64,000 nucleotides of DNA. It comes from an uncultured Sphingobacteriaceae bacterium (GTDB taxonomy: Bacteria > Bacteroidota > Bacteroidia > Sphingobacteriales > Sphingobacteriaceae). This document shows, piece by piece, positions 29,360-54,850 of this stretch (the stretch's first letter is position 1; each line of letters opens with the position of its first letter). A program made the position numbers and the translations under genes. Under the pieces are notes generated by a model, which searched no databases, was not told where the DNA came from, and saw only the letters and a list, made by a program, of their open reading frames with translations. The stretch is taken from assembly GCA_964444885.1 (NCBI GenBank), contig CAYUIZ010000001.1, positions 27,181 to 91,180 of the forward strand. The letters run 5' to 3'.

Positions 29360-29414
29360 ATCGGGAGGAAATCTCTTGCGGATACGGAGCACGACGGCGA
29401 AGCGATTAGGGGGG

Positions 29415-30422: not shown

Positions 30423-30476
30423 CGGTTTGCGTCGTCTTGATGACAGGTTGCAAGCCGCCAATTTATAAACATTCAA

Positions 30477-31418: not shown

Positions 31419-31554
31419 ACCCAAGGTAGATGTGCGCTCAGGCTGTGCAGGACGGGAATATTTTGCAGGTTTTTATTTTGCAGTATTGGTAAATAAAGCC
31501 CATCTTAGACACGGATTTGTATCCATAAAACCCGTTTCTATTTAAGCGATTTAC

Positions 31555-32805: not shown

Positions 32806-32908
32806 TCCGGACGTAGGACAACATTTGGTAAAACCTTACGTCATTATAATAATACGGCTTGCAAAAGCACGAATAAATACAACGACGAGTTAACTTAGAT
32901 AAAAGACA

Positions 32909-34588: not shown

Positions 34589-34623
34589 GATAGCTATTCA
34601 CTGGATAAATGTAAATTATAATT

Positions 34624-36066: not shown

Positions 36067-36084
36067 GAATATAGCAACAGTGCC

Positions 36085-40678: not shown

Positions 40679-41620
40679 TTAATGGACGGCGAACAGCTTG
40701 CTGTTCAGGTATTTTTTCTTGTATTCCAGGGGTGTCATGTCGGTTACCTTCTTAAAATGCCGGTAAAAATTGGATACATTATTAAATCCGCATTCGAAGC
40801 AGATCACCTCCGTGGGCAGCAAATCTTCCACGAGCATCCGACAAGCGTGGCTGATGCGTATTTCGATCAGGAAATCATAAAACGTCTTGTTGGTCATCGT
40901 CCGGAAATACCGACAAAAGGAGGTGGTACTCAGGTTGGCAATAGACGCGATTTCCACGAGACTGATTTCTTTCTTGTAGTTGCTGAGCGTATACGAGCAT
41001 ATGCGGTTGAGTCGGGCTGTGTCCATTTCGTTCGACTTGTAAAAGGCGTGGGCCGAGGCGATGGGTTCGTACTCGCTGGTTTCGGCCAGTAGCTTGAGCA
41101 TAGACATGAGGATGATGACGCGGTCGAGACCGTGGGCATCCGTAGCCTTTTGCATTAAATCCGCCAACAAGAACCGGCTCTCTCCAACGATTTTCATACC
41201 TTTCTGTGCCTTTTCGAAGAGGGTAGGGATGAGGTATGTCTCGGGCAGATTGAGAAAATCCCGACCTAGGCAATGCGGTAAGAAATGGATCACATTAGCT
41301 TCCACCTTGCGGTCGGGGCGGTTCTGGTAAAATTCTTCGTTGCATTGCCACATATGTGGGAGATTGGCCCCGAGCATGATGATTTCGCCTGGCGAAAAGT
41401 TGCCGATATTGTCCCCAATAAACCGGACGCCTTCGCCCCGGATGACATGATGCAGTTCAAGTTCGGGATGGTAATGCCATACGGAACCAAAATTAGACTG
41501 GATGTCGTGCCGTATGCTGAACGAGTTCTGAATTTGTGTCGGCACTTTGTGAAAAGATGGTTTCATGTGCGTCGAGCTAGGTTTCCGGCGCGTTGCCGCA
41601 GGGTTGGAAACAGTTTGCAA
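40679..41620 (-). CDS. AraC family transcriptional regulator with N-terminal cupin domain
   Basis: Cupin segment WHYHPELELHHVIRGEGVRFIGD. C-terminal double HTH (IASIANLSTTSFCRYFR ... GFNNVSNFYRHFKK). It is divergent from the 41834 gene array. Confidence 0.85.
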   Translation of the reverse strand: MQTVSNPAATRRKPSSTHMKPSFHKVPTQIQNSFSIRHDIQSNFGSVWHYHPELELHHVIRGEGVRFIGDNIGNFSPGEIIMLGANLPHMWQCNEEFYQNRPDRKVEANVIHFLPHCLGRDFLNLPETYLIPTLFEKAQKGMKIVGESRFLLADLMQKATDAHGLDRVIILMSMLKLLAETSEYEPIASAHAFYKSNEMDTARLNRICSYTLSNYKKEISLVEIASIANLSTTSFCRYFRTMTNKTFYDFLIEIRISHACRMLVEDLLPTEVICFECGFNNVSNFYRHFKKVTDMTPLEYKKKYLNSKLFAVH

Positions 41621-41833
41621 TTGTTGTTAGTTGGTGTGGACGGCATGACGCCTCTTAACCACCTTACTAAGGTATGTAAATAAAACTCATGCACCAAGCA
41701 AATGATAATATCCTACAATAACTCGCTAATAAGTGCTAAAAAAATGCGCGGATACGGATACACCTTTGTTAAGGAGGAATCCACAGGGCACCCTCCCTAC
41801 AAAACCTGACATAAACCAACGGAAATACCTATC

Positions 41834-43444
41834 ATGGATCAAAAGAAAGTATGGCTTGTTGCCAGTGGCGACTTGCGTTTGGGAGCCAATCAGCTTTGTT
41901 GGCCAGCCCAAGCAGAAATGGAAGCGTTGCTCGGCGAGGCTCTTGCCAAGGCAGGCTGGGCCGTTGTGCGGGCGCATGCCTACGACGAAGCCAAGCAACA
42001 TGGGTTTATTGACTCCCAGCGTATGGGCATTGAGGTGTTCAAGGCGATTCCCCGGGATGCGCCGCTCATTGTAGCCGAGAGCGTTTGGCAATACACGCAC
42101 CACGTGCTCGCTGGCCTTACCACGCACCGGGGTCCGATTCTTACCGTGGCCAATTGGAGTGGCCAATGGCCGGGGTTAGTGGGTATGCTTAACCTCAATG
42201 GTTCGCTGACCAAGGCTGGCGTGGCATATAGTACCTTGTGGAGCGAGCGGTTCGACGATCTTTTTTTTGTGGACAAACTGGAAGCGTGGCTGGCCAACGG
42301 CCACATCAGCCATGATGAATCACACGTCGTCGACTATTCGGAATCCGCGATAGGCGCCGAGGAGCGTGGGATTGGCCAGGAGTTCGCCTCACGGTTTCGG
42401 GACGAAAAAGCGATTATGGGCGTGTTTGACGAAGGCTGCATGGGCATGTTCAATGCGATTATCCCCGATGACCTGCTGCATGCCACAGGCGTATTTAAAG
42501 AACGATTAAGCCAGTCTGCGCTCTACGCGCGTATGCTGACCGTAACGGACGATGAAGCCGAGCACGTGTTGCGGTGGCTGCAGGATAAGGGCATGGAATT
42601 CAAATGGGGGAACGACGAGGCGACTGAATTGACCCGCCGCCAAACCCTCGAACAATGCAAAATGTATATCGCGGCCGTCCGTATCGCGGACGAGTTTGGC
42701 TGTGACACCATTGGCATCCAGTACCAGCAGGGCTTGAAAGATTTGACCATCGCCAGTGATTTGGTCGAAGGCCTGCTAAACAATACGCATCGGCCGCCTG
42801 TGTTTGATGGCGATGGCCGCGAACTGTTTCCAGGCGTCGCTATTCCGCACTTTAACGAGGTCGACGAATGCGCCGGCCTGGATTCCTTGCTGACCTACCA
42901 TCTGTGGCGGCAGCTAGGCATGAACGGAGACAATACGCTCCACGATATACGCTGGGGACAACAGTATACGGGCGAAGGAATCGATGATTACGTCTGGGTT
43001 TTCCTGATCTCGGGTGCTGTTCCGGCATCGCACTTTGCCGGAGGCTACGGCGCGGCATCCAGCTGGCGCCAATCCCCGATGTATTTCCGGTTAGGCGGCG
43101 GTACGTTGCGTGGCGTGAGTAAGCCCGGGCCCATCGTCTGGAGCCGCATTTACGTAGACGGGAACCAATTGCACGCCGATTTGGGCGTGGGCAACGCATT
43201 GCAGTTGCCTGACGAAGAAACGGAGCGCCGGTGGCAGGCTACCTCGCCCGAATGGCCGATCATGCACGCTAGCTTAGCAGGCGTCAGCCGCGACCAATTG
43301 ATGGCGAAGCACAAGGCAAACCACATTCACGTCGTCTATGCCGACAGTGCGGAACAAGCGCAACGGGCTTGCCGTATTAAAGCGGCGGCCCTGGCCACCT
43401 TGGGCGTCCAGGTACATTTCTGTGGTGATGTTGAATTGAAATAA
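41834..43444 (+). CDS. L-fucose isomerase-family (FucI-like, divergent) aldose-ketose isomerase
   Basis: 536 aa. The C-terminal part parallels FucI ([11 protein letters not shown]..., WPIMHASL..., KANHIHVVY). It does not resemble canonical AraA. Specificity is unknown. Confidence 0.7.
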
Positions 43445-43459
43445 AGAAAAAAAGGACAT

Positions 43460-45103
43460 ATGGAACGCTTTGCTATCGGCTTAGATTTTGGAACCGATTC
43501 CGTGAGAGCGTTGCTCGTTGACGCGCGGACCGGCGTAGAGGTGGGTGCGGCCGTGAGCCACTACCCGCGCTGGCGGCAAGGGTTGTTTTGCGACCCGTTG
43601 CGTGCGCAGTTCCGCCAGCACCCGCTCGACTATTTGGAAGCCATGGAAGCCAGCGTGCACGAACTGCTCGCCAGCGTCGACCCCAGCGTCATTCCCCATA
43701 TCGTGGGGCTAGGCGTGGACACTACCGGTTCGACGCCGGTGGCTGTGGACCGGCAGGGCACGCCGTTGGCGCTGTTGCCCGAGTTTGCCGAAAACCCCAA
43801 CGCCATGTTTGTGCTTTGGAAGGACCATACCGCGATTGCTGAAGCGGAAGAGATCAATCAGCTCGCCCGCGAATGGGAAATAGATTTCACCCAGTATTCG
43901 GGAGGTATTTATTCGTCCGAATGGTTTTGGTCGAAAATCCTCCATATCCTTCGTGCGGACGAAGCCGTGCGTTCCAACGCGTATTCCTGGGTGGAGCATT
44001 GCGACTGGATGCCGGCGTTGCTGTGCGGTGAAACCGACCCGTTGGCGATGAAACGCAGCCGTTGTGCGGCGGGCCACAAAGCGATGTGGCATGCATCTTT
44101 CGGCGGACTGCCCTCAGAGGAATTCCTGACGGCGCTGGATCCACTGCTCGAGGGGGTGCGGCGCAAGCTGTACACGGATACGTACACCTCCGACCAAGCC
44201 GTCGGCCGCCTCAGCGCCACATGGGCCGCGCGCCTGGGATTGCACGAAGGGGTGGCGGTAGCCGTGGGTGCCATCGATGCGCATTTCGGAGCCGTAGGCG
44301 CTGCTATCGAACCCTATTCGATGGTGAAGGTGGTGGGCACCTCGACCTGTGATATGCTCGTCGCCCCCATGGAAAAACACCGCGACCAGCTCGTTCGCGG
44401 TATCTGCGGCCAGGTAGACGGCTCTATCCTTCCCAATATGTTGGGCATGGAAGCGGGGCAGTCGGCTTTTGGCGATCTATATCAGTGGTTTGCCAACTTG
44501 CTGGCATTCCCCTTAATCCACCTCGCGCCAGATTCGGGCATTAGTCCGCATGAAGCGTCCAACCGCATATTGGCCCTGCTCGACGAGCAAGCATCCCAAT
44601 TGGCGGTGACGGAGCAGGATGAAATTATCCTCGATTGGGTCAACGGGCGTCGCACGCCCGACGCGCACCCGGGCTTGCAGGCTTGGATCACCGGAGTCCG
44701 GCTGGGGACGGACGCCCCGCGCTTGTTCAAAGCGATCGTGGAGTCTACCGCCTTCGGATCCAAAGCCATCATCGAGCGGTTCGAAGAGGAGGGCATACCC
44801 GTCAAAACGGTATCCGCCACGGGGGGCATCAGCAAAAAGTCGGCGTTCGTCATGCAGACGCTCGCTAACGTATTGGGGCGGCCTATCCGGGTCGTGCGCA
44901 GCGGGCAGACCTGCGCGCTCGGGGCAGCCATGTACGCAGCCGTCGTGGGTGGCGTGTATAGCGACATCGGCGATGCACAGCAAGCCATGTCGTCAGGCTA
45001 TGACCGCGAATACCTGCCACAGCCTGAAAAAACCCGAACTTACAGCGTCCTGTACCAGCGCTATAAAAGGCTGGGCCAGCTACAGGAAGATAATATGCTA
45101 TAG
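43460..45103 (+). CDS. araB: Ribulokinase (FGGY family, AraB-type)
   Basis: Near-colinear with E. coli AraB motifs: IGLDFGTDSVRAL, GVDTTGSTP, FAENPNAMFVLWKDHTA, GGIYSSEWFWSKILH, GTSTCDML, GICGQVDGSILP, EAGQSAFGD, DWVNGRRTP. Confidence 0.9.
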   Translation: MERFAIGLDFGTDSVRALLVDARTGVEVGAAVSHYPRWRQGLFCDPLRAQFRQHPLDYLEAMEASVHELLASVDPSVIPHIVGLGVDTTGSTPVAVDRQGTPLALLPEFAENPNAMFVLWKDHTAIAEAEEINQLAREWEIDFTQYSGGIYSSEWFWSKILHILRADEAVRSNAYSWVEHCDWMPALLCGETDPLAMKRSRCAAGHKAMWHASFGGLPSEEFLTALDPLLEGVRRKLYTDTYTSDQAVGRLSATWAARLGLHEGVAVAVGAIDAHFGAVGAAIEPYSMVKVVGTSTCDMLVAPMEKHRDQLVRGICGQVDGSILPNMLGMEAGQSAFGDLYQWFANLLAFPLIHLAPDSGISPHEASNRILALLDEQASQLAVTEQDEIILDWVNGRRTPDAHPGLQAWITGVRLGTDAPRLFKAIVESTAFGSKAIIERFEEEGIPVKTVSATGGISKKSAFVMQTLANVLGRPIRVVRSGQTCALGAAMYAAVVGGVYSDIGDAQQAMSSGYDREYLPQPEKTRTYSVLYQRYKRLGQLQEDNML

Positions 45104-45191
45104 AAACAAGGGAAAATAGTGTATCCTCCGTAAAGGATTGCCTATTAACTTTGCTGTCGATAACCTATCAACAAACCAAAAATACGCCGCG

Positions 45192-46739
45192 ATGAAAAAC
45201 CTGCCGATAATCGATTTGTCCATCATTTTGGTGTATCTGCTCGCCATGGTCTTGGTAGGGGTTTGGTTTTCGCGAAAAAACAAAAGTTCAGAACAGTTTA
45301 CCAAGGCTTCCGGTTCCATACCGGGCTGGGCCGTCGGTATCTCGCTATATGCCACCTTTCTGAGCAGCAACACTTTCCTGGGTGTGCCGGGCAAGGCTTT
45401 CGGTACCAACTGGAATGCCTTTGTGTTCAGTTTGTCCATGCCACTCGCAGCGTGGGTGGCTGCCAAGTATTTCGTTCCCTTTTACCGGGCATCGGGCGGC
45501 ATATCCGCGTACACGCACTTAGAGCATCGATTTGGTCCCTGGGCGCGCACCTACGCCATGGTCTGCTTCCTGTTGACCCAGCTGGCCCGCATGGGCTCGA
45601 TTTTCTTCGGTATCGCCCTGAGCCTACAGGCGCTTACGGGTTATGACATGGTGACCATTATGCTCGTCACCGGCGTCTGTATCGTGGTGTATACAGTGAT
45701 GGGGGGCATGGAAGCCGTTATCTGGACTGAGGTGGCGCAGGGTATCCTGCTAACCCTCGGGGGACTGCTGATTCTGTATCTGGCAGCCGCCAATGTGGAG
45801 GGAGGCGTTGCGGGCATCGTGGATATCGGCTTGAGCGACGGAAAATTCAGCTTGGGCAGCTTTGACTGGGATTTTGTCGGGCCTTCTTTTTGGGTTATCC
45901 TCCTTTACGGATTTTTTATCAACCTAAATAATTTCGGGATGGACCAGAATTACGTGCAACGCTACCATACCGCTGTTTCGGCTAAAGAAGCGGCTAAGTC
46001 GGTGTGGCTGTGCGTCAAGCTGTATATCCCGATTTCTTTGCTTTTCTTCGTCATTGGATCCGTGCTCTATGCGTATTATGCACAAAACCCGGAGCTGACG
46101 GATGCAATCCGTCTGCAAGCCGCGGCCGAAAGGCTGCCCAGCAGTGCGTCCCTGGCGGAGATCACCGCGCTTGCCAATACGTTGCACGCCGAAGACTTTG
46201 GCGACAAGGTGATGCCGCATTTCATGGTCAATATGGTGCCCGTCGGACTTCTGGGGCTGGTGATATCCGCAATTATAGCCGCGGCGATGAGTACCATCAG
46301 CTCGGGCATGAACGCTTCCGCTACGGTCTTCACCGAAGATATCTACAAGCGATACATTCGTCCGGAAAGCACGAATAAGCAGACCTTGCGCATTTTATTT
46401 ATTACTACGGCAGTCTTCGGCATATTGGGTATCGTAGCGGGTATCGGGATGATTGGCGTCACCAGCATCCTCGATGTGTGGTGGCAGCTGTCAGGTATTT
46501 TTGCCGGCGGTATGCTGGGGCTCTTCCTCTTGGGCATCATCAGTAAAAAAGCTAATAACAACGACGCGATCCTCGCCACGATTGCCGGGGTGTTAGCCAT
46601 TCTGTGGATGACGTTCTCGTATTTGATTCCGAGCCAATATTCGTTTCTCAAGTATCCGCTCCATGCCAATATGATTATTGTGGTCGGCACGCTCGTCATT
46701 TCCCTGGTGGGCGCGGCATTGGCACGACGGAGGCGCTAA
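45192..46739 (+). CDS. Sodium:solute symporter (SSS) family transporter
   Basis: About 13 TM helices. SSS-type N-terminus (LVYLLAMVLVGVWFSRK) and the GGMEAVIWTEVAQ segment. I chose the start at MKNLPII (45192); the ORF opens at 45138. Confidence 0.85.
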   Translation: MKNLPIIDLSIILVYLLAMVLVGVWFSRKNKSSEQFTKASGSIPGWAVGISLYATFLSSNTFLGVPGKAFGTNWNAFVFSLSMPLAAWVAAKYFVPFYRASGGISAYTHLEHRFGPWARTYAMVCFLLTQLARMGSIFFGIALSLQALTGYDMVTIMLVTGVCIVVYTVMGGMEAVIWTEVAQGILLTLGGLLILYLAAANVEGGVAGIVDIGLSDGKFSLGSFDWDFVGPSFWVILLYGFFINLNNFGMDQNYVQRYHTAVSAKEAAKSVWLCVKLYIPISLLFFVIGSVLYAYYAQNPELTDAIRLQAAAERLPSSASLAEITALANTLHAEDFGDKVMPHFMVNMVPVGLLGLVISAIIAAAMSTISSGMNASATVFTEDIYKRYIRPESTNKQTLRILFITTAVFGILGIVAGIGMIGVTSILDVWWQLSGIFAGGMLGLFLLGIISKKANNNDAILATIAGVLAILWMTFSYLIPSQYSFLKYPLHANMIIVVGTLVISLVGAALARRRR

Positions 46740-46788
46740 TCAGGGCGCGCTGCCCAAGCTTACCCGACTGCTGACGGAAACCTGGCTT

Positions 46789-48192
46789 ATGAGAGGACAT
46801 TCGTTAAAAAAGATCTTTCGGCATCCCGCGGTGCCGGCCGTTATGCTGTGCGCGGCGGCGTGTGGCCATCAACCTACACCGACTATGGATTTTATCGAAA
46901 CTCAACTCACCGTAGCCCCGCAGGGGCATACCATCCACCATACGCAGGTTTTTTCGCCGGACGGCCAATGGGTGGTGTACGACATCCGCAATGACGACAC
47001 GAAAATCGGCAGCACCGGACGCATTGAGATGGTAAACGTACACACCGGCGAGGTCCGTTTGCTGTATGCCGTGCCCAACCAAACGGAATACGGGCCCGGT
47101 GTGGGGGCGGCGACATTCTCACCGGCCGGAGACACCGTGCTATTTATCCACGGCATACGCAACGCCGACGAGTCCCGTCCGTATGCCTTGACCCGGCGGA
47201 CGGCCGTAGCCATTGAGGTGGCCAATCCGGGCGTTCCTATCTTCATGGATGCCCGGGATATCGATCCGCCGTTCACCCCAGGGGCGCTTCGCGGCGGCAC
47301 GCACGCCCATTCCTGGAGCGGAGATGGCCGCTGGCTGAGCTTCACCTACAACGACTGGGTGATGGAACAGCTTGCCCGAGAAGATCCCTCCGTGCAAGAT
47401 TTGCGAACCGTAGGCGTGATGGTTCCGGGACGCGTGGTCGTGGGGCAAGACCCGGTCCTGGAAAACCATGGTGGCGAGTGCTTTTCGGTGGTTGTGGCGC
47501 GCGTGACGGAAAATCCGCTCCCCGGCAGTGACGAGATTGACAGGGCTTTTGACGAGTGCTGGATCGGGACCGATGGATACCGCCGGGCAGACGGAAGCTG
47601 GCAGCACCGCGCCATAGCCTTTCAGGGAGATGTCCGCACATCCGCCGGAGACACCGTCACGGAGGTGTTTATTGTGGATCTGCCCGACGACGTTAGGCAG
47701 GCTGTACCCGGCAACCCACTGGAAGGAACCGAACAAGACCGGCCTGGCGTGCCCTCGGGCGTGAGCCAACGACGCCTCACCTTTACGAAAAACGGCGTTC
47801 GCGGACCACGGCATTGGTTGCGGACGACGCCGGACGGCCGTGTTGTGTTTTACCTGTCTGAGGACAGCGATGGCAGGGTACAGGTGTATGGCGTGCCGAC
47901 CAATGGCGGCAGCGCCGTCCAGCTAACGCACAATGCGTTCGGTGTAGAAGGCCAATTTAACGTACATCCGAAAGGAGACCGGCTCATTTACCCGGCTGCA
48001 AACAGCATTTTTATCACGCGGATCGACGACGGGGCTACGTGGCGCATCACCCGCCGTTTTGAAGCGGGATCGGCCCCTGTCGGCGCCCCGCACTGGTCGC
48101 CGGACGGCGAAAGGATTATTTACAGTCGCTACGTGGGCGAAGGGGACGAGCGGTACTTACAGCTGTTTTTGCTGGAACCGAACACCCGGTAG
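46789..48192 (+). CDS. YidR/DUF3748-like beta-propeller lipoprotein
   Basis: Lipobox-like VMLCAAAC. Segments VNVHTGEV, LRGGTHAHSWS, SFTYNDW, PGSDEIDRAF, QRRLTFT and PRHWLR match my memory of the YidR family. The ORF's 5' extension to 46678 overlaps the transporter gene. Confidence 0.55.
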   Translation: MRGHSLKKIFRHPAVPAVMLCAAACGHQPTPTMDFIETQLTVAPQGHTIHHTQVFSPDGQWVVYDIRNDDTKIGSTGRIEMVNVHTGEVRLLYAVPNQTEYGPGVGAATFSPAGDTVLFIHGIRNADESRPYALTRRTAVAIEVANPGVPIFMDARDIDPPFTPGALRGGTHAHSWSGDGRWLSFTYNDWVMEQLAREDPSVQDLRTVGVMVPGRVVVGQDPVLENHGGECFSVVVARVTENPLPGSDEIDRAFDECWIGTDGYRRADGSWQHRAIAFQGDVRTSAGDTVTEVFIVDLPDDVRQAVPGNPLEGTEQDRPGVPSGVSQRRLTFTKNGVRGPRHWLRTTPDGRVVFYLSEDSDGRVQVYGVPTNGGSAVQLTHNAFGVEGQFNVHPKGDRLIYPAANSIFITRIDDGATWRITRRFEAGSAPVGAPHWSPDGERIIYSRYVGEGDERYLQLFLLEPNTR

Positions 48193-48300
48193 TGCTTTTG
48201 GCTAACATCCTACAAAACCCCGCCAATTTGATATAGAAGCGATGTGTTAGCAAGTTTTACCTTTGGTTATAGCAAGTTTACGAATACCTGAACATCGATA

Positions 48301-49236
48301 ATGAATGGAAAACCAAAGGGGTTTGTCCCCGTTATGCTGACGCCTTTCCGTGCCGACGGTACGGTGGACTACGATGGCCTCACCCGAATCACGGAATTAT
48401 ATTTGGAAGCCGGCGCGTCGGGATTGTTTGCCAATTGCCTCTCGAGTGAGATGTTTGAGCTGAGCGCCGAAGAGCGGCTGGCCGTTGTGGAGCACGTCGT
48501 GCGTGTGGCATCAGGGAGCGTGCCCGTGGTGGCTACGGCTACTTTTGGAGGGCTCGTCGGCCAGCAAGCGGATGACGTGAAGCGCATGTACGAAACGGGT
48601 ATCGAAGCCGCCATCGTCATTACGAATATGCTAGTAGGCGAAGGTGCGCCCGACGAGGAATTTGAAGATCAACTGAACGCGCTGTTGGATGCGACTGAAG
48701 CCGTTCCGCTAGGGCTGTACGAATGTCCGGATCCTTTCAAGCGCGTGCTGTCGGCCGAACAACTTGGCCGTTACGTGGACACGGGACGCGTTATCTACCA
48801 TAAGGATACCTGCTTGGATATTGGCCTGGTCAAGGCGAAGCTGTCCGCTACGGAACACAAGGACGCTTTCGGGTTGTATGACGCGTACATGGTGCACGCC
48901 GTGGAATCCCTCAAGGCGGGGTCAGCGGGTCTGTCCTGTATCCAGGGTAACTATTTTCCCGAATTGGTTGTCTGGCTATGTGAACATTACGACGATGAGA
49001 GCCTGGCCGGCGAGGTGGATAAGGTACAGCAATTTTTTGTCGACCACATGGATGTCATGCACCACATGTATCCGGTGGTAGCCAAATATTTTTTAACGAA
49101 ACGTAACCTGCCCATCGAACTGTTCACGCGCAAGGCAACGGGCGGGCTGGATGCCGGATTAAGGCAAGATGTAGACCGATTGTTCGCCGATTACGAACAG
49201 TTGTACAAGTCCTTGGATGTCCGGCTGGTCGTCTAG
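48301..49236 (+). CDS. DapA/NanA-family class I (Schiff-base) aldolase; specificity unknown
   Basis: Motifs: VPVMLTPF, TIM-barrel pattern, candidate Schiff-base Lys in VIYHKDT. The usual GTTGE motif is replaced by NCLSSEM, so it is not a typical DHDPS. Confidence 0.75.
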   Translation: MNGKPKGFVPVMLTPFRADGTVDYDGLTRITELYLEAGASGLFANCLSSEMFELSAEERLAVVEHVVRVASGSVPVVATATFGGLVGQQADDVKRMYETGIEAAIVITNMLVGEGAPDEEFEDQLNALLDATEAVPLGLYECPDPFKRVLSAEQLGRYVDTGRVIYHKDTCLDIGLVKAKLSATEHKDAFGLYDAYMVHAVESLKAGSAGLSCIQGNYFPELVVWLCEHYDDESLAGEVDKVQQFFVDHMDVMHHMYPVVAKYFLTKRNLPIELFTRKATGGLDAGLRQDVDRLFADYEQLYKSLDVRLVV

Positions 49237-49347: not shown

Positions 49348-50745
49348 ATGAGTAGATACAAGAAAATAACGATAAGGCATCTTCGATGGGTAGGGCTACA
49401 GGCATCGCTGATGCTCTTTTTTGGCCCGATGCTCCTGGCCCAACAGGAGGCTGTGGGGTCGCACAACGCGCTCAAACGCTATCTGGCCCATAATGATGGT
49501 AAATTTTCGTGGGAGATCCAAGACAGCCTTATCACGAACAATAGCACCATTTACCAGGTGTTGCTCACGTCCCAGCAATGGCGGGAATTCACGTGGAAGC
49601 ACCAACTCAACGTGGTCGTGCCCAAGATCGTCAAGCACGATGGTGGGCTGTTGTTTATAAGCAGTGGCCGCATGCAGCGCGAGAATCCTAACGAGCCCGA
49701 GTGGCATGATTTGGCGTCCGATGGCATGATCCAGTCGGTCGCGCAGATGGCCGTTGAGAATCACGCCGTCGCCGCGCTGCTGCGCCAAGTGCCCAACCAG
49801 CCCTTATACGGCGGCATGACCGAAGACGAACTGATTTCCTATACGCTGCACCAGTTTCAAAACGACCAGGACTACACGTGGCCCTTGCTGTTTCCGATGG
49901 TGAAGAGTGCCGTCAAGGCAATGGATGCCGTGCAGGAAATTGTACAGAACCGTTCCTCACAGCCTGTTAGCCGATTCGTAGCAACGGGGCTGTCGAAGCG
50001 GGGGTGGACCACCTGGCTCACTGCTTCGCAAGACAGCCGTGTGGAAGCATTGGCACCCATGGTCATCGATATTCTCAATATGCCCGTCAACCTTAATTAC
50101 CAGATTGAGGTATGGCAGGAGTACAGCCCGCAGATACAGGATTACGTGGCGCTGGGCTTGGTGCAGGACGTCGAGAGCGAACGAGGCCGGACTTTAGCCG
50201 AAATGATCGATCCGTATGCGTATCGTAGGTTGCTGGATAAACCCAAAATGCTTTTCATGGGCACAAACGACCAGTATTGGGTGATTGATGCGGTTAAGCA
50301 TTATCTCGACAGCATCCCGGGTGCCAGCTACATCCATTATGTACCCAATGAGGGGCATAGCTTGGGCGACAAAACGCAGGCATTCCGTGCCTTATCCTCG
50401 TTTTGGGGTTTCACCCTGCATGACGAATCCTATCCGGTCCTCACCTGCGATGCGGTGTCGCACTCCGGACAGCTGAGGTTGGATGTCCGGGCCACGCCGT
50501 CCCGGCTGGTCGCGGCAAAATTATGGTATGCCGTGTCTGACGATCAAGATTTTAGGGACGAGAAGTGGCAAAGCCGCGATTTGGATGTCCGGCGGGTCAA
50601 CCGTTTTGTGGTGACGGAGCCTACACCCGTGGCGGGATACAAAGCGTGCTATGTCGATTTGGTTTACGAAGATATTCACGGCGAATATTATAGCCAAAGC
50701 ACCCGCGTGTATGTGGGTGATAAACAGGGATTTTTTATGGATTGA
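49348..50745 (+). CDS. PhoPQ-activated pathogenicity-related (PqaA-type) alpha/beta-hydrolase-like secreted protein
   Basis: Signal peptide. GLSKRGWTTW and the surrounding segments match my memory of Pfam PF10142-type proteins. Biochemical function is unknown. Confidence 0.6.
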   Translation: MSRYKKITIRHLRWVGLQASLMLFFGPMLLAQQEAVGSHNALKRYLAHNDGKFSWEIQDSLITNNSTIYQVLLTSQQWREFTWKHQLNVVVPKIVKHDGGLLFISSGRMQRENPNEPEWHDLASDGMIQSVAQMAVENHAVAALLRQVPNQPLYGGMTEDELISYTLHQFQNDQDYTWPLLFPMVKSAVKAMDAVQEIVQNRSSQPVSRFVATGLSKRGWTTWLTASQDSRVEALAPMVIDILNMPVNLNYQIEVWQEYSPQIQDYVALGLVQDVESERGRTLAEMIDPYAYRRLLDKPKMLFMGTNDQYWVIDAVKHYLDSIPGASYIHYVPNEGHSLGDKTQAFRALSSFWGFTLHDESYPVLTCDAVSHSGQLRLDVRATPSRLVAAKLWYAVSDDQDFRDEKWQSRDLDVRRVNRFVVTEPTPVAGYKACYVDLVYEDIHGEYYSQSTRVYVGDKQGFFMD

Positions 50746-50756
50746 ACTAGCAGGAG

Positions 50757-52091
50757 ATGATGATGAGCATGGTATGTATTCCCCTATTAATTAGGGCTGG
50801 GGCGGTGCGGCGGCGCATCGGCCTATTGATGGTTTTAATGCTGGCTACGGCTTCGGTGTTTTCGCAGATTGCCGATTTGTCACCCATTCGGCCCGGCTTG
50901 TGGCCCGATCGCGTCGTTCTGAACGTGACGGAAGACCCCGCCACCTCCACGGCTGTCACGTGGCGTACCAGTACGGCGGTTAAGGGCGGCGCGGCGCAGC
51001 TCGTAGTTGCCGATCCGCATCCGGCGTCGGTGAGTCAGGCGCTGGCCCAAAGCGCCGATACGGAGGTGTTGCAATTTAGCGAGCTCGAAGCGCATTATCA
51101 TTCGGTCACCTTCAGCGGATTGACGCCGAACACCCGGTATGCCTATCGGGTGGGAGAGGGCGACCATTGGAGTGAGTGGCACCATTTTACAACGGCGGGC
51201 ACGGCTGCGGACGATTTAACCTTCTTGTATTTCGGGGACGTCCAAACGAATATATTGCCGATGTGGTCGCGCGTAGTCCGGCAGGCTTACCGCCAAGCAC
51301 CGGACGCACGCCTAGCCTTATATGCGGGGGACTTGGTAAATCGGGCAAACCGCGACGTGGAATGGGGCGAGTGGTTTGCTGCGGGTGGTTTTATCCACGC
51401 TGAAATCCCGGTGATGCCCACCCCAGGCAACCATGACCACGCATCGACCGATGCGGGCGAAAACCTCATTTCGGCGTATTGGCGGCCACAATTTACCTTA
51501 CCCGAGAACGGGCCTGCCGGTTTGGAGGAAAGCTGCTACTACGTTGATGTGCAGGGCGTCCGGCTTATCTCGATTAATACCCAGCGCTACGAACTGTCCG
51601 AAGATGACCGCAAGAGCCAGCGCGAATGGCTGGCGAGCGTCCTAGCGGATAATCCCAATAAATGGACCTGCCTCCTGATGCACCATCCGGTCTATTCGAC
51701 CAAACGAAACCGCGATAATAAGATGTTGCGTGCGGATTTGAAACCGCTGATCGACCGCTATGGCGTAGATTTGGTGATGCAGGGACATGACCATACCTAC
51801 GTGCGCGGCATGGAAAAAGTGCCGATGCCCAATGGGCAAGCACCGGGCACCATGTACGTTGTATCCGTGAGTGGCCCTAAGATGTCGGATGTCTTGCATG
51901 CCGATTGGATGGAGCGCGTAGCCGGACATACGCAGCTGTTCCACATTGTGGACGTGGCGGGTGATGTCCTTCGTTTCAGGGCTTTCACCGCCACAGGCGA
52001 GCTTTACGACGAGTTCGAGTTGCACAAGTCGCCCGGACAAGCTAATCGACTACTTAACAAGATACCTGAGGGCGTGCCAGAGCGCCAGTAA
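50757..52091 (+). CDS. Secreted metallophosphoesterase with purple-acid-phosphatase-type N-terminal domain
   Basis: PAP N-terminal domain (VTWRT...TPNTRYAYRVG). Metallophosphoesterase motifs GDVQ, GDLVNR, GNHDH, HHP, GHDH. Confidence 0.8.
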   Translation: MMMSMVCIPLLIRAGAVRRRIGLLMVLMLATASVFSQIADLSPIRPGLWPDRVVLNVTEDPATSTAVTWRTSTAVKGGAAQLVVADPHPASVSQALAQSADTEVLQFSELEAHYHSVTFSGLTPNTRYAYRVGEGDHWSEWHHFTTAGTAADDLTFLYFGDVQTNILPMWSRVVRQAYRQAPDARLALYAGDLVNRANRDVEWGEWFAAGGFIHAEIPVMPTPGNHDHASTDAGENLISAYWRPQFTLPENGPAGLEESCYYVDVQGVRLISINTQRYELSEDDRKSQREWLASVLADNPNKWTCLLMHHPVYSTKRNRDNKMLRADLKPLIDRYGVDLVMQGHDHTYVRGMEKVPMPNGQAPGTMYVVSVSGPKMSDVLHADWMERVAGHTQLFHIVDVAGDVLRFRAFTATGELYDEFELHKSPGQANRLLNKIPEGVPERQ

Positions 52092-52109
52092 ATGAGAGGA
52101 GTGTAAAGA

Positions 52110-53033
52110 ATGAAAACGTTTTTTTCCAGTATTGCGATGCGTAGCGCGTGGTGCGGTGCCGTACTGCTTTGCGCGGCTTGCGGCCTACCGGATGAACCGC
52201 TCGATCGGGTTGGCGAAATCTGGGAACTCTATCACGACAGTCCAGAGGCGGTGCTCGTCGTAGCACACCGCGGGGCGCACGCGGATGTTCCTGAGAATTC
52301 ACTGGCTTCGATTGATAAGGCCGTCGAAGCGGGCGTGCATATTGTCGAACTTGATATCCAGCAGACTAAGGACGGGGTTTTTGTAGCCATGCACGACCGT
52401 GTGCTGGACCGAACGACGACCGGGACGGGTGAACTAGCCGACTATACCTACGCGGAACTGCAGTCCGTACGCTTGCTACACCAAGGCAACCCCACGGATT
52501 ACCGGATTCCGACATTGGAGGAAGCGGTTGGCCGCGCCAAAGGCCGGGTTTTGTTGGATATCGATTTCAAGGTGCATGGGCTACAAGCGCGTTTTGATGT
52601 GTTTGATGAGCTTACCAGGCTCGATGCCGAAGACCTCGTGCTGTTTTATTGCTACGACTATACCGAATTGCCCGTGTTGCACGCGTACAACCCGCGCATT
52701 AAAATCATGCCGCGTGCCTACGATTTGGTACAATTTAAGGAAATCGTCGAGTTGGGCCTGACCGATATCATCCATGTCGATGGGTCCTTTTACAGTTCGG
52801 AGGCAGTTGAAAAAATAGTCAACGAAAAGCCTATTCGGATATGGGCCAATGTGCTGGGCCGGCATGATCAGCAGGCCGCACAACATGGATCGGGTGCCTA
52901 CCGCTCATTCTTTGACAAACTGGCGCCCGTGAATGTCGTGCAAACCGATCAGCCACATTTATTAACTGAATATCTGGCGCAGGAGACGGACCGAGCCCTT
53001 GTGACGTCTGCCAGCTATAAAGACGTACGATGA
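52110..53033 (+). CDS. Glycerophosphodiester phosphodiesterase (GDPD) family lipoprotein
   Basis: Lipobox LLCAAC. Motifs: VVAHRGA..PENS, VELDIQQTKDGVFVAMHD. Confidence 0.88.
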   Translation: MKTFFSSIAMRSAWCGAVLLCAACGLPDEPLDRVGEIWELYHDSPEAVLVVAHRGAHADVPENSLASIDKAVEAGVHIVELDIQQTKDGVFVAMHDRVLDRTTTGTGELADYTYAELQSVRLLHQGNPTDYRIPTLEEAVGRAKGRVLLDIDFKVHGLQARFDVFDELTRLDAEDLVLFYCYDYTELPVLHAYNPRIKIMPRAYDLVQFKEIVELGLTDIIHVDGSFYSSEAVEKIVNEKPIRIWANVLGRHDQQAAQHGSGAYRSFFDKLAPVNVVQTDQPHLLTEYLAQETDRALVTSASYKDVR

Positions 53034-54823
53034 CTGCCTTCCGCCGGGTGTTGCCAAGAAGAGCCATTGTCCTGCTGTGGGCTGTTGTTGGATGTGCCTA
53101 TGCCAGCTGTCAGCCGGGGCCGGCGGCCACGGGTACGGTCGATGCGGTCATGGATGACGTGGTGACCCGACTCTATGCCGAGCTGGGCGACAGCCAGTTA
53201 GATACAATCAGTGATGCCTTTATGGCTCACTTCCTGACCGAGGCAGAAAAAGAAACGCTGGCTACGGCGTATTGGCGGTTTGAGGTCAATGTTCCGGTGG
53301 TCGTATCGCTCATGCGGGACACGGCACAGCAGCAGGTACCCTTTTGGTTGGAAGACAGCCCGTTTGTGAAAACGGATTTGATTGTGCGGAACGGTTTGTC
53401 GACCTATGAGGTTTGGCAAGCCGATTTTCCTGCCGGCAAAGTGGGGTTGGGAATCAATGGATTTGACCGGCACCGGCCCGTTTACTTCATTGCGGTAGCG
53501 CCCCAAAACCCGACGGACCAACTTGACATCCAACCTTTGTTTCCGCAGGACCAGCACATTGGGGTGATGGATACCGGATCGTTTACCTACCACGACTGGG
53601 ACGGACTGGTCTTGGAAGAAATTCCCGCCGTACTGCGCGGCCAGGCGCTGTTGACCACAATCCGCGGACGGGCACGCGAGGCCCATGTGATCGGCGGATT
53701 CCGCACCACGGCATTTCCCTCAACCCTCGCCCCAGACCAGATCACGTTGACGCTGGGCGCTGACCCGCGAACCCGCATGACGGTGCAATGGCGCACGGAC
53801 GCCTCCGTCAATGACGCTTGGGTCAAATATTGGCCATCCGGTGGGACGGATACGGTGAAGGTGGATGCCCTACATGCCCCGCTCGAAGACCGGCAACTGC
53901 GAAACGACCGCTATACCAGTCGTTTTACGGCACAGTTGGACGATCTCCACCCGGCCACCGCGTACGGATACATCGTGGGGCACGACGGTTCGGTGTCAGA
54001 CACAATGGCCTTTTCTACGGCCGGCGATACTGGGCCGTTCTCCTTTCTTTGGCTCGGGGACGTGCACAATGACCCGAAGACCGGCGAATTGTTGCAAAAT
54101 GCAGCCCGGACACACCCCGAATCCGCTTTTTGCGTCTTAGCAGGGGACCTCGTCAATACCGGCTTGTACCGCAATGATTGGGACGATCTGCTCGGCTATG
54201 CAGGCCAGGTGTATGGCCATATCCCACTCATGGCCGTGCCCGGCAACCACGACAGCCAGGATGGGCTGGGCGCGTCCATGTATCAGCAGTACCTCCACTA
54301 CCCGCAAAACGGGCCGAGCAACGTGGCACCAGGGTTTACCTATGCATTCCACTACCATAATGCGCTATTTTTGATGGTCGACGTCGTTAGCTTTTCGGCA
54401 GCAGCACAACGTGAATGGATCGCCGACCAACTCGCCCGTACGGATGCGGTTTGGAAGTTTGTCGTGTTTCATTTCCCGCCGTATACCAACAGGGAACCCT
54501 ATGTCGACATTGAACAGGAATGGGTGCCCCTGTTTGACGAATACGGCGTTGATATCGTCATGAACGGGCATTTCCATTATTACCTGCGCACCCAACCCAT
54601 GCGCGCCGGCAAGCCTGTCGCGGCGGGGCAACGGGGGACCACCTACATCATGTCTGTGGGCACGGGAAATAAGAACCAGACCGGCGAAACAGAGGCGCAT
54701 GCGGCCAAACGCGCCAACCAAGGTTACCTATACCAATATGTGCGCGTGGATGGAAATAAAATGATCCATACCAGTTTCGATGCCGGCGGAAACGTAGTTG
54801 ATTCGTTTGAGCTTCGAAAATAA
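53030..54823 (+). CDS. Metallophosphoesterase (purple-acid-phosphatase-like) with an extra ~230-aa N-terminal domain
   Basis: Motifs: MTVQWRT...ATAYGYIVG, GDVHND, GDLVNTG, GNHDS, HFPPY, GHFHYY. The start ATG overlaps the upstream stop (ATGA). Confidence 0.75.
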   Translation: MTAFRRVLPRRAIVLLWAVVGCAYASCQPGPAATGTVDAVMDDVVTRLYAELGDSQLDTISDAFMAHFLTEAEKETLATAYWRFEVNVPVVVSLMRDTAQQQVPFWLEDSPFVKTDLIVRNGLSTYEVWQADFPAGKVGLGINGFDRHRPVYFIAVAPQNPTDQLDIQPLFPQDQHIGVMDTGSFTYHDWDGLVLEEIPAVLRGQALLTTIRGRAREAHVIGGFRTTAFPSTLAPDQITLTLGADPRTRMTVQWRTDASVNDAWVKYWPSGGTDTVKVDALHAPLEDRQLRNDRYTSRFTAQLDDLHPATAYGYIVGHDGSVSDTMAFSTAGDTGPFSFLWLGDVHNDPKTGELLQNAARTHPESAFCVLAGDLVNTGLYRNDWDDLLGYAGQVYGHIPLMAVPGNHDSQDGLGASMYQQYLHYPQNGPSNVAPGFTYAFHYHNALFLMVDVVSFSAAAQREWIADQLARTDAVWKFVVFHFPPYTNREPYVDIEQEWVPLFDEYGVDIVMNGHFHYYLRTQPMRAGKPVAAGQRGTTYIMSVGTGNKNQTGETEAHAAKRANQGYLYQYVRVDGNKMIHTSFDAGGNVVDSFELRK

Positions 54824-54850
54824 CCTGTATTAACCGTTAATTGAACCAAT

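Follow-up and report, generated by a model that had tools for sequence, protein, structure and literature searches.

Kdo is an eight-carbon sugar acid found in the plant pectin RG-II, in algal scales and in bacterial LPS. Its possible breakdown product D-arabinose shares the C2-C4 configuration of L-fucose and is used through FucI and a D-ribulokinase in Klebsiella aerogenes and through FucI-FucK-FucA in E. coli, whose AraB also takes D-ribulose as a substrate. A Kdo aldolase activity (EC 4.1.2.23) was reportedly found in Enterobacter cloacae during the 1960s. No sequence for this activity was found in the literature, and the EC number lies within a 2007 sample of orphan enzyme activities (PMC1940265). 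When growing on RG-II, B. thetaiotaomicron excretes Kdo; one paper calls Kdo pathways unconfirmed. No published assignment of Kdo catabolic genes was found, in agreement with the initial annotation of the DNA studied here, according to which no gene set is known to be firmly assigned to such a route. The locus described below, of soil-type Bacteroidota, has a somewhat better than even chance of being one: judged from its sequence, it would import Kdo, cleave it to pyruvate and D-arabinose and route the pentose into central metabolism. If true, genes would be assigned to a Kdo catabolic route for the first time.

Gene content of the locus

The window, i.e. the whole 64-kb stretch of DNA that was analysed, carries the following features:

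40679..41620 (-): AraC-family regulator, cupin sensor + HTH (Pfam HTH_18 72.5 bits; Cupin_2 and AraC_binding weak)
41834..43444 (+): FucI/AraA-superfamily isomerase, 536 aa (Pfam Fucose_iso_C)
43460..45103 (+): AraB-type ribulokinase (NF003154, TIGR01234)
45192..46739 (+): SiaT-like SSS Na+/solute symporter (best PDB match SiaT 5nv9)
46789..48192 (+): DUF3748 beta-propeller, alternative start 46885 (Pfam DUF3748 122 bits)
48301..49236 (+): divergent DHDPS/NanA-family lyase (Pfam DHDPS 81 bits)
49348..50745 (+): PhoPQ_related (PqaA-like) exported protein (Pfam PF10142 321 bits)
50757..52091 (+): purple acid phosphatase (Pfam Pur_ac_phosph_N + Metallophos)
52110..53033 (+): glycerophosphodiester phosphodiesterase family protein (Pfam GDPD 98 bits)
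53030..54823 (+): second purple acid phosphatase, 597 aa (Pfam)
54851..56053 (+): BNR1, BNR_2 sialidase-fold protein (BNR_2 148 bits)
56080..58320 (+): 746-aa exported protein, no family match in Pfam, NCBIfam or the PDB
58609..59703 (+): HGSNAT-like membrane acyltransferase family protein (Pfam HGSNAT_cat 37 bits)
59719..60804 (+): BNR2, BNR_2 sialidase-fold protein (BNR_2 248 bits)
60870..64000 (+): SusC-like TonB-dependent transporter, cut by the window end (Pfam CarbopepD_reg_2 + Plug)

ORF calls and Pfam/NCBIfam scans confirm the five co-directional genes and the divergent AraC regulator of the initial annotation, and the starts listed also yield its intergenic distances of 15, 88, 49 and 108 nt. 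The fifth gene, for DUF3748, had not been named, nor had that for SusC where the window ends. Translation of the regulator probably begins with the Met at 41566, for a length of 295 aa like that of its relatives. The Pfam scan took in the gene-like ORFs of at least 180 aa in the window and returned no class II aldolase (PF00596) among them; five class II aldolases encoded in related loci, used as tblastn queries against the window, gave a best E of 1. Within these searches, the earlier statement that neither AraD nor a class II aldolase occurs in the 64 kb is borne out.

The DUF3748 protein is a seven-bladed beta-propeller (AF2 pLDDT 91.5) with PL22 oligogalacturonate lyase as best global fold match (3pe7/3c5m, TM 0.54-0.62). 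The alternative start yields a 435-aa cytoplasmic form, an identical product is called elsewhere (P0241), and homologs occur with and without a lipoprotein signal. It is encoded in 8 of 45 Bacteroidota loci and lies outside the steps of the proposed Kdo route; that the route offers no explanation for it counts against the route.

Two sialidase-fold genes had been noted downstream, and both are present as BNR_2 proteins, not directly adjoining the module. PhoPQ_related, the two purple acid phosphatases and the GDPD gene separate the aldolase from BNR1, and the 746-aa protein, with a terminator-like hairpin and T-run 3' of its gene (near 58387), and the HGSNAT-like gene separate BNR1 from BNR2. 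The nearest BNR gene thus lies 5.6 kb from the aldolase, and RG-II CAZymes were not found within the window; both observations count against the Kdo route. The PhoPQ_related protein, which may act as an accessory hydrolase in this locus, is followed after 11 nt by the first purple acid phosphatase. Copies of PhoPQ_related (68-70% identity) come after aldolase-BNR-BNR in three metagenome contigs (L092, L098 and L103); in L092 and L098, relatives of the second purple acid phosphatase (55-59% identity) follow PhoPQ_related, and BNR1 copies (68-69% identity) end the aldolase-BNR-BNR-PhoPQ-PAP array. BNR1 has distant GH33 sialidase matches in the PDB and is a candidate ulosonic-acid glycosidase. 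From 60870 onwards the SusC-like reading frame has no stop before the window ends (at least 1043 aa), and the presence of this transporter identifies the array as a polysaccharide utilisation locus (PUL).

Proposed Kdo route

In the proposed route, for which we infer every substrate, periplasmic sialidase-fold (GH33-like) enzymes would free Kdo and the SiaT-like Na+ symporter would bring it into the cell. The divergent DHDPS/NanA-family lyase, forming a Schiff base at Lys168, would split it into pyruvate and D-arabinose, which the FucI/AraA-superfamily isomerase would convert to D-ribulose and the AraB-type kinase to D-ribulose 5-phosphate. Since the latter enters the pentose phosphate pathway, no AraD would be needed. 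The divergent AraC protein would regulate the whole set. That the substrate is an acidic ulosonic sugar is very likely on the sequence evidence; Dha, the other ulosonic acid of RG-II, would follow the same transporter and lyase logic. The Kdo interpretation draws support from observed family membership, from retained catalytic and carboxylate-binding residues (those of the lyase and the SiaT-like triad), from the conserved gene neighbourhood, and from the RG-II context and FucU-linked orthologs. The computational checks suggested with the initial annotation all came out in its favour.

Transporter and lyase

Against the PDB, the symporter scores 261 bits with SiaT (5nv9) and 150 bits with vSGLT. 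The Neu5Ac carboxylate is bound in SiaT by Ser60, Thr63 and Arg135 (PMC5931594), and this triad is kept in 43/43 isomerase-linked symporters. Every residue that surrounds the N-acetyl group or the glycerol group has been exchanged, and the exchanges are shared by these symporters; the changes in the Neu5Ac pocket are Thr58Phe, Gly81Ser, Gln82Leu/Ile, Phe243Gly and Gln250Asn. A SiaT-like symporter with the carboxylate triad points to the import of an acid sugar, not of L-arabinose or L-fucose, and the protein is proposed to be an ulosonic-acid (Kdo) importer.

The lyase belongs to the DHDPS family, yet it is neither DapA nor NanA nor any other named equivalog: its scores remain below every NCBIfam equivalog cut-off (NanA models 36-40 bits vs 281-382). 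K168 and Y140 are invariant and fall, in the alignment, on the Lys and Tyr that serve catalysis in DHDPS. The non-DHDPS motif NCLSSEM, previously noticed in place of GTTGE, is confirmed; ANCLSSEM (NC-x-SSE) is invariant in the subfamily. These features suggest a competent class I (Schiff-base) pyruvate aldolase of a new subfamily, which is proposed to be the Kdo aldolase. In aldolase-anchored metagenome loci, the lyase is paired with a SiaT-like symporter in 47 of 56 cases. In 33 of the 56, RG-II-type loci included, there is no isomerase gene, an observation that counts against the Kdo route.

Isomerase and kinase

The isomerase exceeds the Pfam cut-off for Fucose_iso_C (34.9 vs 29.3 bits) and has no match in NCBIfam or, by sequence, in the PDB. 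Foldseek with its AF2 model (pLDDT 86.8) ranks FucI (6k1f/4c20/1fui) and D-arabinose isomerase (3a9r) on top (E about 1e-20), in line with its earlier description as FucI-like rather than AraA-like; the margin is slight, AraA following just below (E about 7e-18), and the enzyme represents a third branch within the superfamily of FucI and AraA. Its homologs (62-87% identity) are spread over four or more phyla, and gene context switches inside one clade of the isomerase tree. Verrucomicrobiota orthologs (~65% identity) are flanked by a FucU equivalog, a class II aldolase and a rhamnulokinase-like kinase, and these sets point to L-fucose/D-arabinose stereochemistry. This context and the fold fit the stereochemistry that the Kdo model requires, and the protein is proposed to be a D-arabinose (L-fucose-type) aldose-ketose isomerase.

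The kinase lies above the cut-offs of both ribulokinase models (NF003154, 728.8 bits vs 428; TIGR01234, 609.4 vs 583.25), so its AraB-like nature stands. Both models bear the plain NCBI name 'ribulokinase', classically an L-ribulose enzyme, which counts against the Kdo route. The product of the kinase is proposed to be D-ribulose 5-phosphate; with neither epimerase nor aldolase present, a pentulose kinase makes sense only if what it produces already belongs to central metabolism.

Neighbourhood conservation and possible source glycans

The conservation of the neighbourhood, another of the suggested checks, was assessed in 45 isomerase-anchored Bacteroidota loci. The symporter occurs in 40, as does a DHDPS-family gene, and both lie together with the isomerase in 40; sialidase-fold BNR genes occur in 12, and AraB stands beside the isomerase in 11, none of which has AraD; AraD is absent from all 45. 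Fuculokinase-type kinases and class II aldolases are likewise absent from all Bacteroidota isomerase loci. The restriction of AraB to about a quarter of the loci counts against the Kdo route. Orthologs of the regulator (61-94% identity) are divergent from the isomerase in 31/45.

RG-II-type CAZyme genes surround 19/45 isomerase loci, e.g. the RG-II-type set of Pedobacter and Hymenobacter (GH95, GH2, GH140 apiosidase, DUF3826, SusC/D). In two loci (L021 and L024) a GH78+BNR_2 fusion lies immediately 5' of symporter-isomerase-aldolase. It matches BT1013 of B. thetaiotaomicron in domain order, the feature on which the link rests; BT1013 is a GH78 rhamnosidase and Kdo hydrolase that attacks chain C of RG-II, and the GH33 family includes a Kdo hydrolase. 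BNR2 aligns with the BNR domain of the L021 fusion (37% identity, 328 aa, E 8e-58) and shows 33-40% identity to BNR genes flanking isomerase and aldolase in Cyclobacteriaceae, Leadbetterella and Prosthecobacter loci, which makes it a candidate Kdo hydrolase. In Cyclobacteriaceae and Verrucomicrobiota, a second, unrelated DHDPS subfamily (28% identity over 76 aa) adjoins isomerase and BNR genes, apparently as a non-orthologous replacement.

Alternative substrates

Two unrelated functions might share one PUL, an arrangement that we regard as unlikely: symporter and lyase would serve Kdo and/or Dha as the ulosonic acid, the isomerase would simply be the L-fucose (or L-galactose) isomerase of the lineage for fucose freed from RG-II, and the kinase would take either its product or some other substrate. 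The Verrucomicrobial FucU-isomerase-aldolase-kinase sets are typical of fucose catabolism, and GH95 genes flank many loci. The isomerase is transcribed apart from symporter-lyase in Pedobacter and Hymenobacter, and because it heads a separate unit in Pedobacter and is missing from those 33 aldolase loci, it could serve RG-II L-fucose independently of the aldolase. However, in Sphingobacterium, Leadbetterella, Flavobacterium and the window it lies within a co-directional run, between or beside symporter, AraB and lyase. The isomerase-DHDPS2-BNR adjacency also repeats in loci devoid of fucose genes, no Bacteroidota locus supplies the fuculokinase-type kinase or class II aldolase, and AraB-type distal phosphorylation needs a C6 hydroxyl, which L-fuculose lacks. 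The arrangement is moreover compatible with Kdo catabolism, as one FucI-type enzyme would handle both sugars.

Still less probable is another 2-keto-3-deoxy ulosonic acid, such as Dha (from chain D of RG-II), Kdn or an acid of algal or bacterial origin, whose aldehyde product the isomerase would take. Transporter and lyase indicate only an acidic, sialic-acid-like sugar without a Neu5Ac pocket, RG-II holds Dha besides Kdo, and sialidase-fold enzymes cleave several ulosonic acids. Dha, however, would give a four-carbon uronic aldehyde and Kdn D-mannose; neither is a substrate of FucI type or provides a pentulose on which an AraB-type kinase could act. The fusion of GH78 and BNR corresponds to the Rha-Kdo chain C enzyme, not the GH143 Dha hydrolase, and the BNR proteins match only GH33-type sialidases in the PDB. 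A plain L-arabinose cluster, with the isomerase replacing AraA, AraD encoded elsewhere and lyase and DUF3748 as passengers, is very improbable. It would account for the kinase scores and the AraC-type regulator; L-arabinose occurs in RG-II, and Bacteroides takes up arabinose by an SSS transporter. Yet the symporter keeps a SiaT-like Arg/Ser/Thr carboxylate site, not a neutral-sugar site, AraD is consistently missing, and lyase linkage is as tight as transporter linkage. The isomerase orthologs pair with FucU, and L-arabinose is opposite to L-fucose in C2-C4 configuration. A Mucilaginibacter strain uses L-arabinose through a canonical araB-araD-araA cluster.

Comparison with known systems

With the araBAD operon the locus shares a divergent AraC-type regulator and an AraB-type kinase; it differs in lacking an AraA-type isomerase and AraD and in having an acid-type transporter and an extra lyase. 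The RG-II PULs of B. thetaiotaomicron (BT0977-BT1030) resemble the related loci with GH95, GH2, GH140, GH78, DUF3826 and the GH78+BNR fusion, whereas the window has phosphatases, GDPD, PhoPQ_related and two stand-alone BNR genes in place of RG-II CAZymes, and B. thetaiotaomicron excretes Kdo rather than consuming it.

As in the enterobacterial FucI route, a FucI-superfamily isomerase is followed by a kinase, D-ribulose 5-phosphate would be reached without epimerase, and Verrucomicrobial orthologs retain the FucU/aldolase/kinase arrangement. The window isomerase, however, is only 14-17% identical to FucI, with only the C-terminal Pfam domain detected and no FucI equivalog match. The kinase is AraB-type, in contrast to the D-ribulokinase of the ribitol operon, and D-arabinose would arise intracellularly from Kdo.

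Sialic-acid nan clusters likewise combine a sialidase-fold glycosidase, a SiaT-type Na+ symporter, which binds the carboxylate through the same residues, and a Schiff-base lyase of the DHDPS/NanA family that releases pyruvate and an aldose. In the window, by contrast, the lyase is no NanA equivalog and its GxxGE motif is replaced, the Neu5Ac pocket of the transporter is remodelled, and an aldose-ketose isomerase and a pentulose kinase take the place of the ManNAc epimerase and kinase downstream. The reaction proposed for the 48301-49236 product, Kdo to pyruvate and D-arabinose, is that of the Kdo aldolase EC 4.1.2.23.

Organization of the locus

The initial annotation had described five co-directional genes, separated by 15, 88, 49 and 108 nt, next to a divergent cupin-AraC regulator. 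An ORF listing reproduces these gaps and, together with HMM scans, confirms the gene array. The two sialidase-fold genes placed downstream of the module are recovered as BNR_2 proteins (148 and 248 bits), and HMM scans and tblastn found no AraD or class II aldolase in the 64 kb, again as annotated.

Features of the locus (window coordinates, strand)
40679-41620, - strand: divergent cupin-AraC regulator (ORF listing and HMM scans)
41834-43444, + strand: isomerase, 536 aa (Pfam Fucose_iso_C, 34.9 bits, C-terminal domain alone)
next after the isomerase, + strand: ribulokinase, above both NCBIfam equivalog cut-offs
after the ribulokinase, + strand: Na+/solute symporter (HMM scan)
46789-48192 (alternative start 46885), + strand: DUF3748 beta-propeller (HMM scan)
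48301-49236, + strand: DHDPS-family lyase (Pfam DHDPS, 81 bits)
49348-56053, + strand: PhoPQ_related protein, purple acid phosphatase (PAP), GDPD, second PAP and BNR_2 protein (BNR1), in this order with short gaps
56080-58320, + strand: 746-aa exported protein, family-less, with a hairpin and T-run behind it
between the hairpin and the SusC-like gene, + strand: HGSNAT-like membrane protein, then second BNR_2 protein (BNR2)
60870-64000, open at the window end, + strand: SusC-like TonB-dependent transporter (CarbopepD_reg and Plug)

Since this co-directional, short-gap array reaches up to the SusC-like gene, which starts 65 nt past the second BNR gene, the region constitutes a locus of at least 15 genes resembling a polysaccharide utilisation locus (PUL). 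As the SusC-like gene runs off the window, the whole array is probably a PUL, with SusD and more genes beyond the window end; SusC-SusD genes are found behind the lyase in related contigs. The nearest relatives are uncultured Sphingobacteriaceae and Parapedobacter. The window SusC itself resembles the SusC genes found in related loci no more than generically (25-27%), which is uninformative. For the 746-aa exported protein, Pfam, NCBIfam and PDB sequence searches gave no match; it could be an undescribed glycan-active enzyme.

A scan of 40.4-52.2 kb for sigma-70 promoters and terminators performed no better than on shuffled sequences (11 vs. 9.1; 17 vs. 13.2), and sigma-70 is an unsuitable promoter model in Bacteroidota. 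Searching by hand located TAnnTTTG motifs at 45146, 48258 and 58492 and the hairpin after 58320, which as regulatory signals are suggestive only. A separate cluster at 27027-36654 encodes an FGE-sulfatase-like protein, GFO/IDH/MocA oxidoreductases (one with a TAT signal), ApbE, a xylose-isomerase-like TIM barrel, a nucleoside-H+-symporter-type MFS protein, a GMC oxidoreductase and a gluconate 2-dehydrogenase subunit-3-like protein, a gene content reminiscent of periplasmic glycoside 3-dehydrogenase systems.

Symporter, lyase and DUF3748

By a wide margin, the nearest solved relative of the symporter is SiaT of Proteus mirabilis (261 bits vs. 150 for vSGLT). In SiaT, Ser60 and Thr63 hold the carboxylate of Neu5Ac, Arg135 forms a salt bridge with it, and mutation of these residues abolishes transport (PMC5931594). 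Thr58, Gly81, Gln82, Phe243 and Gln250 contact the substrate at its anomeric OH, its glycerol tail and its N-acetyl region. The carboxylate triad is kept in the window symporter and in 43 of 43 isomerase-linked homologs (Thr63 being Ser in five), which take in a 46%-identical subgroup. The five other positions are uniformly exchanged for Phe, Ser, Leu/Ile, Gly and Asn, respectively, in the 43 homologs. Because the triad is kept and the Neu5Ac contacts are swapped, the comparison points to an acidic, sialic-acid-like cargo other than Neu5Ac and speaks against both L-arabinose and L-fucose.

The lyase shows the hallmarks of DHDPS/NanA class I aldolases, i.e. the TIM-barrel family HMM (81 bits), the Schiff-base Lys and the catalytic Tyr. 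K168 and Y140 are invariant in an alignment of 23 orthologs and correspond in profile searches to these two residues of the DHDPS structures 3hij/1xky. The G-[ST]-[ST]-G-E carboxylate-binding motif is missing; N45-C46-L-S48-S49-E50 takes its place, and this sequence, flagged as a non-DHDPS motif in the initial annotation, is likewise invariant. The HMM placement suggested there puts the protein in the DHDPS family and far below every named equivalog cut-off, HpaI-like included, with best scores of 36-54 bits against the NanA, DapA, KdgD and YagE equivalogs (cut-offs 206-397). Invariant K168 and Y140 combined with a replaced motif therefore make the lyase a plausible class I pyruvate-dependent aldolase of a new, uncharacterised subfamily.

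DUF3748, to which E. coli YidR belongs, would have no step in the route proposed below, and a literature search found no function for it. Its AlphaFold model (pLDDT 91.5) has seven propeller blades and globally matches the PL22 oligogalacturonate lyase best (TM 0.54-0.62), yet with only 9-13% identity. PL22 enzymes combine such a propeller with a His/Gln Mn2+ site; in DUF3748, four His residues are invariant (H15, H140, H142, H310). Homologs come in two forms, one of about 433 aa that lacks a signal and one of about 465 aa bearing a lipoprotein signal. Which of the two the window gene would encode depends on the start codon (46789 or 46885), and an identical 435-aa product, starting at the internal Met at 46885, is called elsewhere.

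Isomerase and kinase

The AF2 model of the isomerase (pLDDT 86.8, pTM 0.90) displays the three-domain fold of the FucI/AraA superfamily, with Foldseek probabilities of 1.00 to FucI, D-arabinose isomerase and AraA structures (E 1e-20 to 1e-13). L-fucose isomerases and the Bacillus pallidus D-arabinose isomerase are the top matches (E about 1e-20, 14-17% identity); L-arabinose isomerases rank second (E about 7e-18). Measured against full-length curated FucI models, the protein falls outside FucI proper, as Fucose_iso_C is the sole domain seen (34.9 bits), with no N-terminal domains, and neither an NCBIfam match nor a PDB sequence match at E<=1 was obtained. Nor is it AraA proper: AraA Pfam and NCBIfam matches are lacking, the fold rank lies below FucI, and AraD is absent. 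The isomerase thus constitutes a third branch of the superfamily. The earlier description as FucI-like rather than AraA-like holds by a narrow margin in this ranking. Judged from the model, fold alone leaves the specificity unfixed. As candidates for the Mn2+ ligands and the catalytic Glu/Asp of FucI, the sequences offer invariant E342, D344, E345, H370, D371, H493 and H497.

The family comprises at least 8000 homologs, with 62-87% identity over Bacteroidota, Verrucomicrobiota, Chloroflexota, Deinococcota and Acidobacteriota, that are named only 'fucose isomerase' or 'hypothetical' in the sources. The literature search yielded no earlier characterisation, and the GapMind paper has nothing on the family.

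The adjacent kinase is an AraB ribulokinase (NF003154, 728.8 vs. a cut-off of 428; TIGR01234, 609.4 vs. 583.25), according to models that do not separate L- from D-ribulose.

Conservation of the gene neighborhood

An isomerase-anchored scan (tblastn, ORF clustering; one genome per species) gave 80 loci, and the counts below refer to the 45 from Bacteroidota that have 5 kb or more of flanking sequence.

Genes near the isomerase in 45 Bacteroidota loci
SiaT-like symporter: 40/45
DHDPS-family gene: 40/45 (36 of the window subfamily, 4 of a second subfamily)
divergent AraC: 31/45
RG-II-type CAZymes: 19/45
sialidase-fold genes: 12/45
AraB: 11/45
DUF3748: 8/45
AraD: 0/45

The proposed conservation of an aldolase/isomerase/AraB/symporter/BNR neighborhood is borne out, with the symporter and the DHDPS-family gene in most of the loci, AraB in only about a quarter and sialidase-fold genes in 12. 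The second DHDPS subfamily shares only 28% identity over 76 residues with the window lyase. In loci of Cyclobacterium and other Cyclobacteriaceae, it adjoins both the isomerase and BNR genes. Two Verrucomicrobiota loci likewise have it next to the isomerase: one in a Prosthecobacter MAG, where a BNR gene accompanies it, and one in a Verrucomicrobiaceae MAG. Such a non-orthologous replacement independently points to cooperation between aldolase and isomerase.

Among 56 lyase-anchored metagenome loci of at least 9 kb, the symporter is present in 47, AraC in 40 and the isomerase in only 23. Symporter and lyase therefore form the tight core, with the isomerase as a frequent yet dispensable neighbor. 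The isomerase is an optional insertion whose position is fixed: many RG-II-type loci (L120, L125, L129, L130, L132 and others) show the order GH95-GH2-symporter-lyase-AraC-DUF3826 without an isomerase between AraC and DUF3826.

Five metagenome contigs (L095, 1-7903; also L092, L096, L098, L103) carry upstream of the lyase a conserved set comprising a HUMPS/OMPdecase family protein, a Zn-ADH, an SDR, a xylose-isomerase-like TIM barrel, a PfkB kinase, a metallo-beta-lactamase, an MFS protein and an SMP-30 lactonase. This looks like a Ula-like lactone/ketoacid pathway; being absent from the window and most loci, it was rejected as an extra pathway of the module and treated as a neighbor. Two taxonomic labels are probably binning or labelling artefacts: a locus assigned to an uncultured Limnohabitans MAG (L056) has the gene order and near-identical proteins of an Algoriphagus locus (L065), and one assigned to Akkermansia muciniphila (L066) groups with soil/freshwater Verrucomicrobiaceae.

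Probable source glycans

In Pedobacter, Arcticibacter and Hymenobacter, the module lies amid GH95, GH2+malectin, DUF3826, GH140 apiosidase, GH43-like and SusC/D genes, an RG-II-type set. A Flavobacterium MAG and a Sphingobacteriales MAG encode, directly upstream of symporter-isomerase-lyase, a 1263-aa GH78 rhamnosidase with a C-terminal BNR_2 domain; Aridibaculum has a split version, GH78-DUF3826-BNR_2-GH28, followed by symporter and isomerase. B. thetaiotaomicron BT1013, which targets chain C of RG-II (Rha-alpha-1,5-Kdo), combines a GH78 rhamnosidase at the N-terminus with a Kdo hydrolase at the C-terminus (PMC13501991, a 2026 review). Kdo hydrolase belongs within CAZy GH33 (PMC9120202), and the Francisella Kdo hydrolase contains a sialidase-like subunit (PMC3573668). 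Both window BNR proteins match the BNR/Asp-box six-bladed propeller HMM, and their PDB matches are GH33 sialidases. BNR2 shares 37% identity over 328 residues (E 8e-58) with the BNR domain of the GH78+BNR fusion and 33-40% identity with module-linked BNR genes elsewhere. A minimal PUL, isomerase-symporter-lyase-SusC-SusD-BNR-BNR, is found in Leadbetterella and Lacihabitans.

Parapedobacter-like contigs show two layouts. One reads divergent AraC, isomerase, AraB, symporter, (opposite-strand unknown), lyase, SusC, SusD, BNR, with DUF3748 after BNR in one of two contigs; the other reads lyase-BNR-BNR-PhoPQ_related-PAP-BNR1. Both layouts taken together identify the phosphatase/PhoPQ/BNR block of the window as a recurrent lyase partner rather than a chance neighbor. 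Copies of the PhoPQ_related/PAP/BNR1 block (window 49348-56053) with 55-70% identity directly follow lyase-BNR-BNR in other Sphingobacteriaceae-like metagenome contigs (L092, L098, L103); a GDPD copy (58% identity) was detected only in L092. The recurrent block hints at a phosphorylated target glycan, e.g. capsule anchors or the LPS core. No RG-II CAZymes occur in the window, which has phosphatases and a GDPD gene, and its version of the module may target a different, phosphorylated Kdo glycan.

A bolder and rather improbable extension would regard the window as a non-RG-II PUL scavenging phosphorylated Kdo-bearing envelope glycans (LPS inner core, lipid-linked poly-Kdo capsule anchors). PhoPQ_related, PAP, GDPD and BNR proteins would strip phosphate/phosphodiester and free Kdo, with DUF3748 as a new enzyme on a Kdo- or uronate-containing fragment. 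If true, this together with the orphan Kdo aldolase would outline a pathway for recycling bacterial necromass or LPS.

Proposed route and alternative substrates

In the proposed route, an acidic ulosonic sugar would be imported and split by the pyruvate lyase, and the aldose product would pass through the FucI-type isomerase and the pentulose kinase, with neither epimerase nor aldolase afterwards. For Kdo, this would give pyruvate and D-arabinose, then D-ribulose and D-ribulose 5-phosphate. Kdo is the natural sugar that would suit acid import, a lyase, a FucI-type isomerase and a pentulose kinase without epimerase all at once. From the gene content and residue patterns, an acidic ulosonic substrate is quite probable, and for Kdo specifically, the reading already offered at annotation and now supported by several independent comparative lines, the chances are somewhat better than even. 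Precedents for the route are the Kdo aldolase activity described in Enterobacter cloacae and, for D-arabinose, the Klebsiella aerogenes pathway of FucI plus D-ribulokinase. As far as the literature search found, no Kdo catabolic genes have been assigned, and EC 4.1.2.23 appeared in a 2007 sample of orphan activities, then without sequence (PMC1940265).

Three other ulosonic acids do not fit the isomerase and kinase: cleavage of Dha, the other one in RG-II, would give a four-carbon uronic aldehyde, Kdn would yield D-mannose and Neu5Ac ManNAc. L-arabinose, Neu5Ac, Kdn, aceric acid and the unsaturated uronate DKI were dismissed as best explanation on transporter, stereochemical or kinase grounds.

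The isomerase may instead primarily serve L-fucose freed from RG-II. This is favored by its GH95 neighbors, by the transcription unit of its own that it has in Pedobacter, by the 33 of 56 lyase loci that lack it and by its verrucomicrobial context. In five loci, four from Verrucomicrobiota and one from an unclassified MAG (L062, L069, L078, L044, L046), a class II aldolase, like the aldolase half of bifunctional RhaD, lies within about 350 nt behind the isomerase (about 65% identity). It is followed by a rhamnulokinase-like FGGY kinase in two of them (L062, L069). An L-fucose mutarotase gene (FucU) precedes the isomerase in L069 (148 vs. an equivalog cut-off of 141) and L078, both also with an AraC/periplasmic-binding-domain regulator. 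This context is apparently a fucose-type phosphorylative route, i.e. a non-canonical L-fucose (or D-arabinose) operon. The neighbor-joining tree of the isomerase follows taxonomy, with differing contexts within a single clade, so that a single activity is probably reused. D-arabinose and L-fucose have their C2-C4 configuration in common, and classical FucI enzymes are D-arabinose isomerases too; the verrucomicrobial context fits the stereochemistry of the Kdo route as well.

To our knowledge, Kdo occurs in every Gram-negative LPS; it is also part of plant RG-II and green-algal scales. If the Kdo model is true, it would supply a sequence for the orphan enzyme EC 4.1.2.23, define a new specificity class among SiaT-type transporters as well as among NanA-family lyases, assign a function to a very large, highly conserved isomerase family (>8000 homologs), and provide enzymes for Kdo analytics and synthesis. 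It would also account for the leakage of RG-II-derived Kdo by B. thetaiotaomicron, as opposed to its possible consumption by soil/freshwater Bacteroidota and Verrucomicrobiota, a difference that bears on cross-feeding in gut, rhizosphere and plankton. Judged by their defining features, the module falls outside the nan, araBAD and fucIKA systems; it would work in the manner of a nan (sialic acid) cluster joined to a D-arabinose route.
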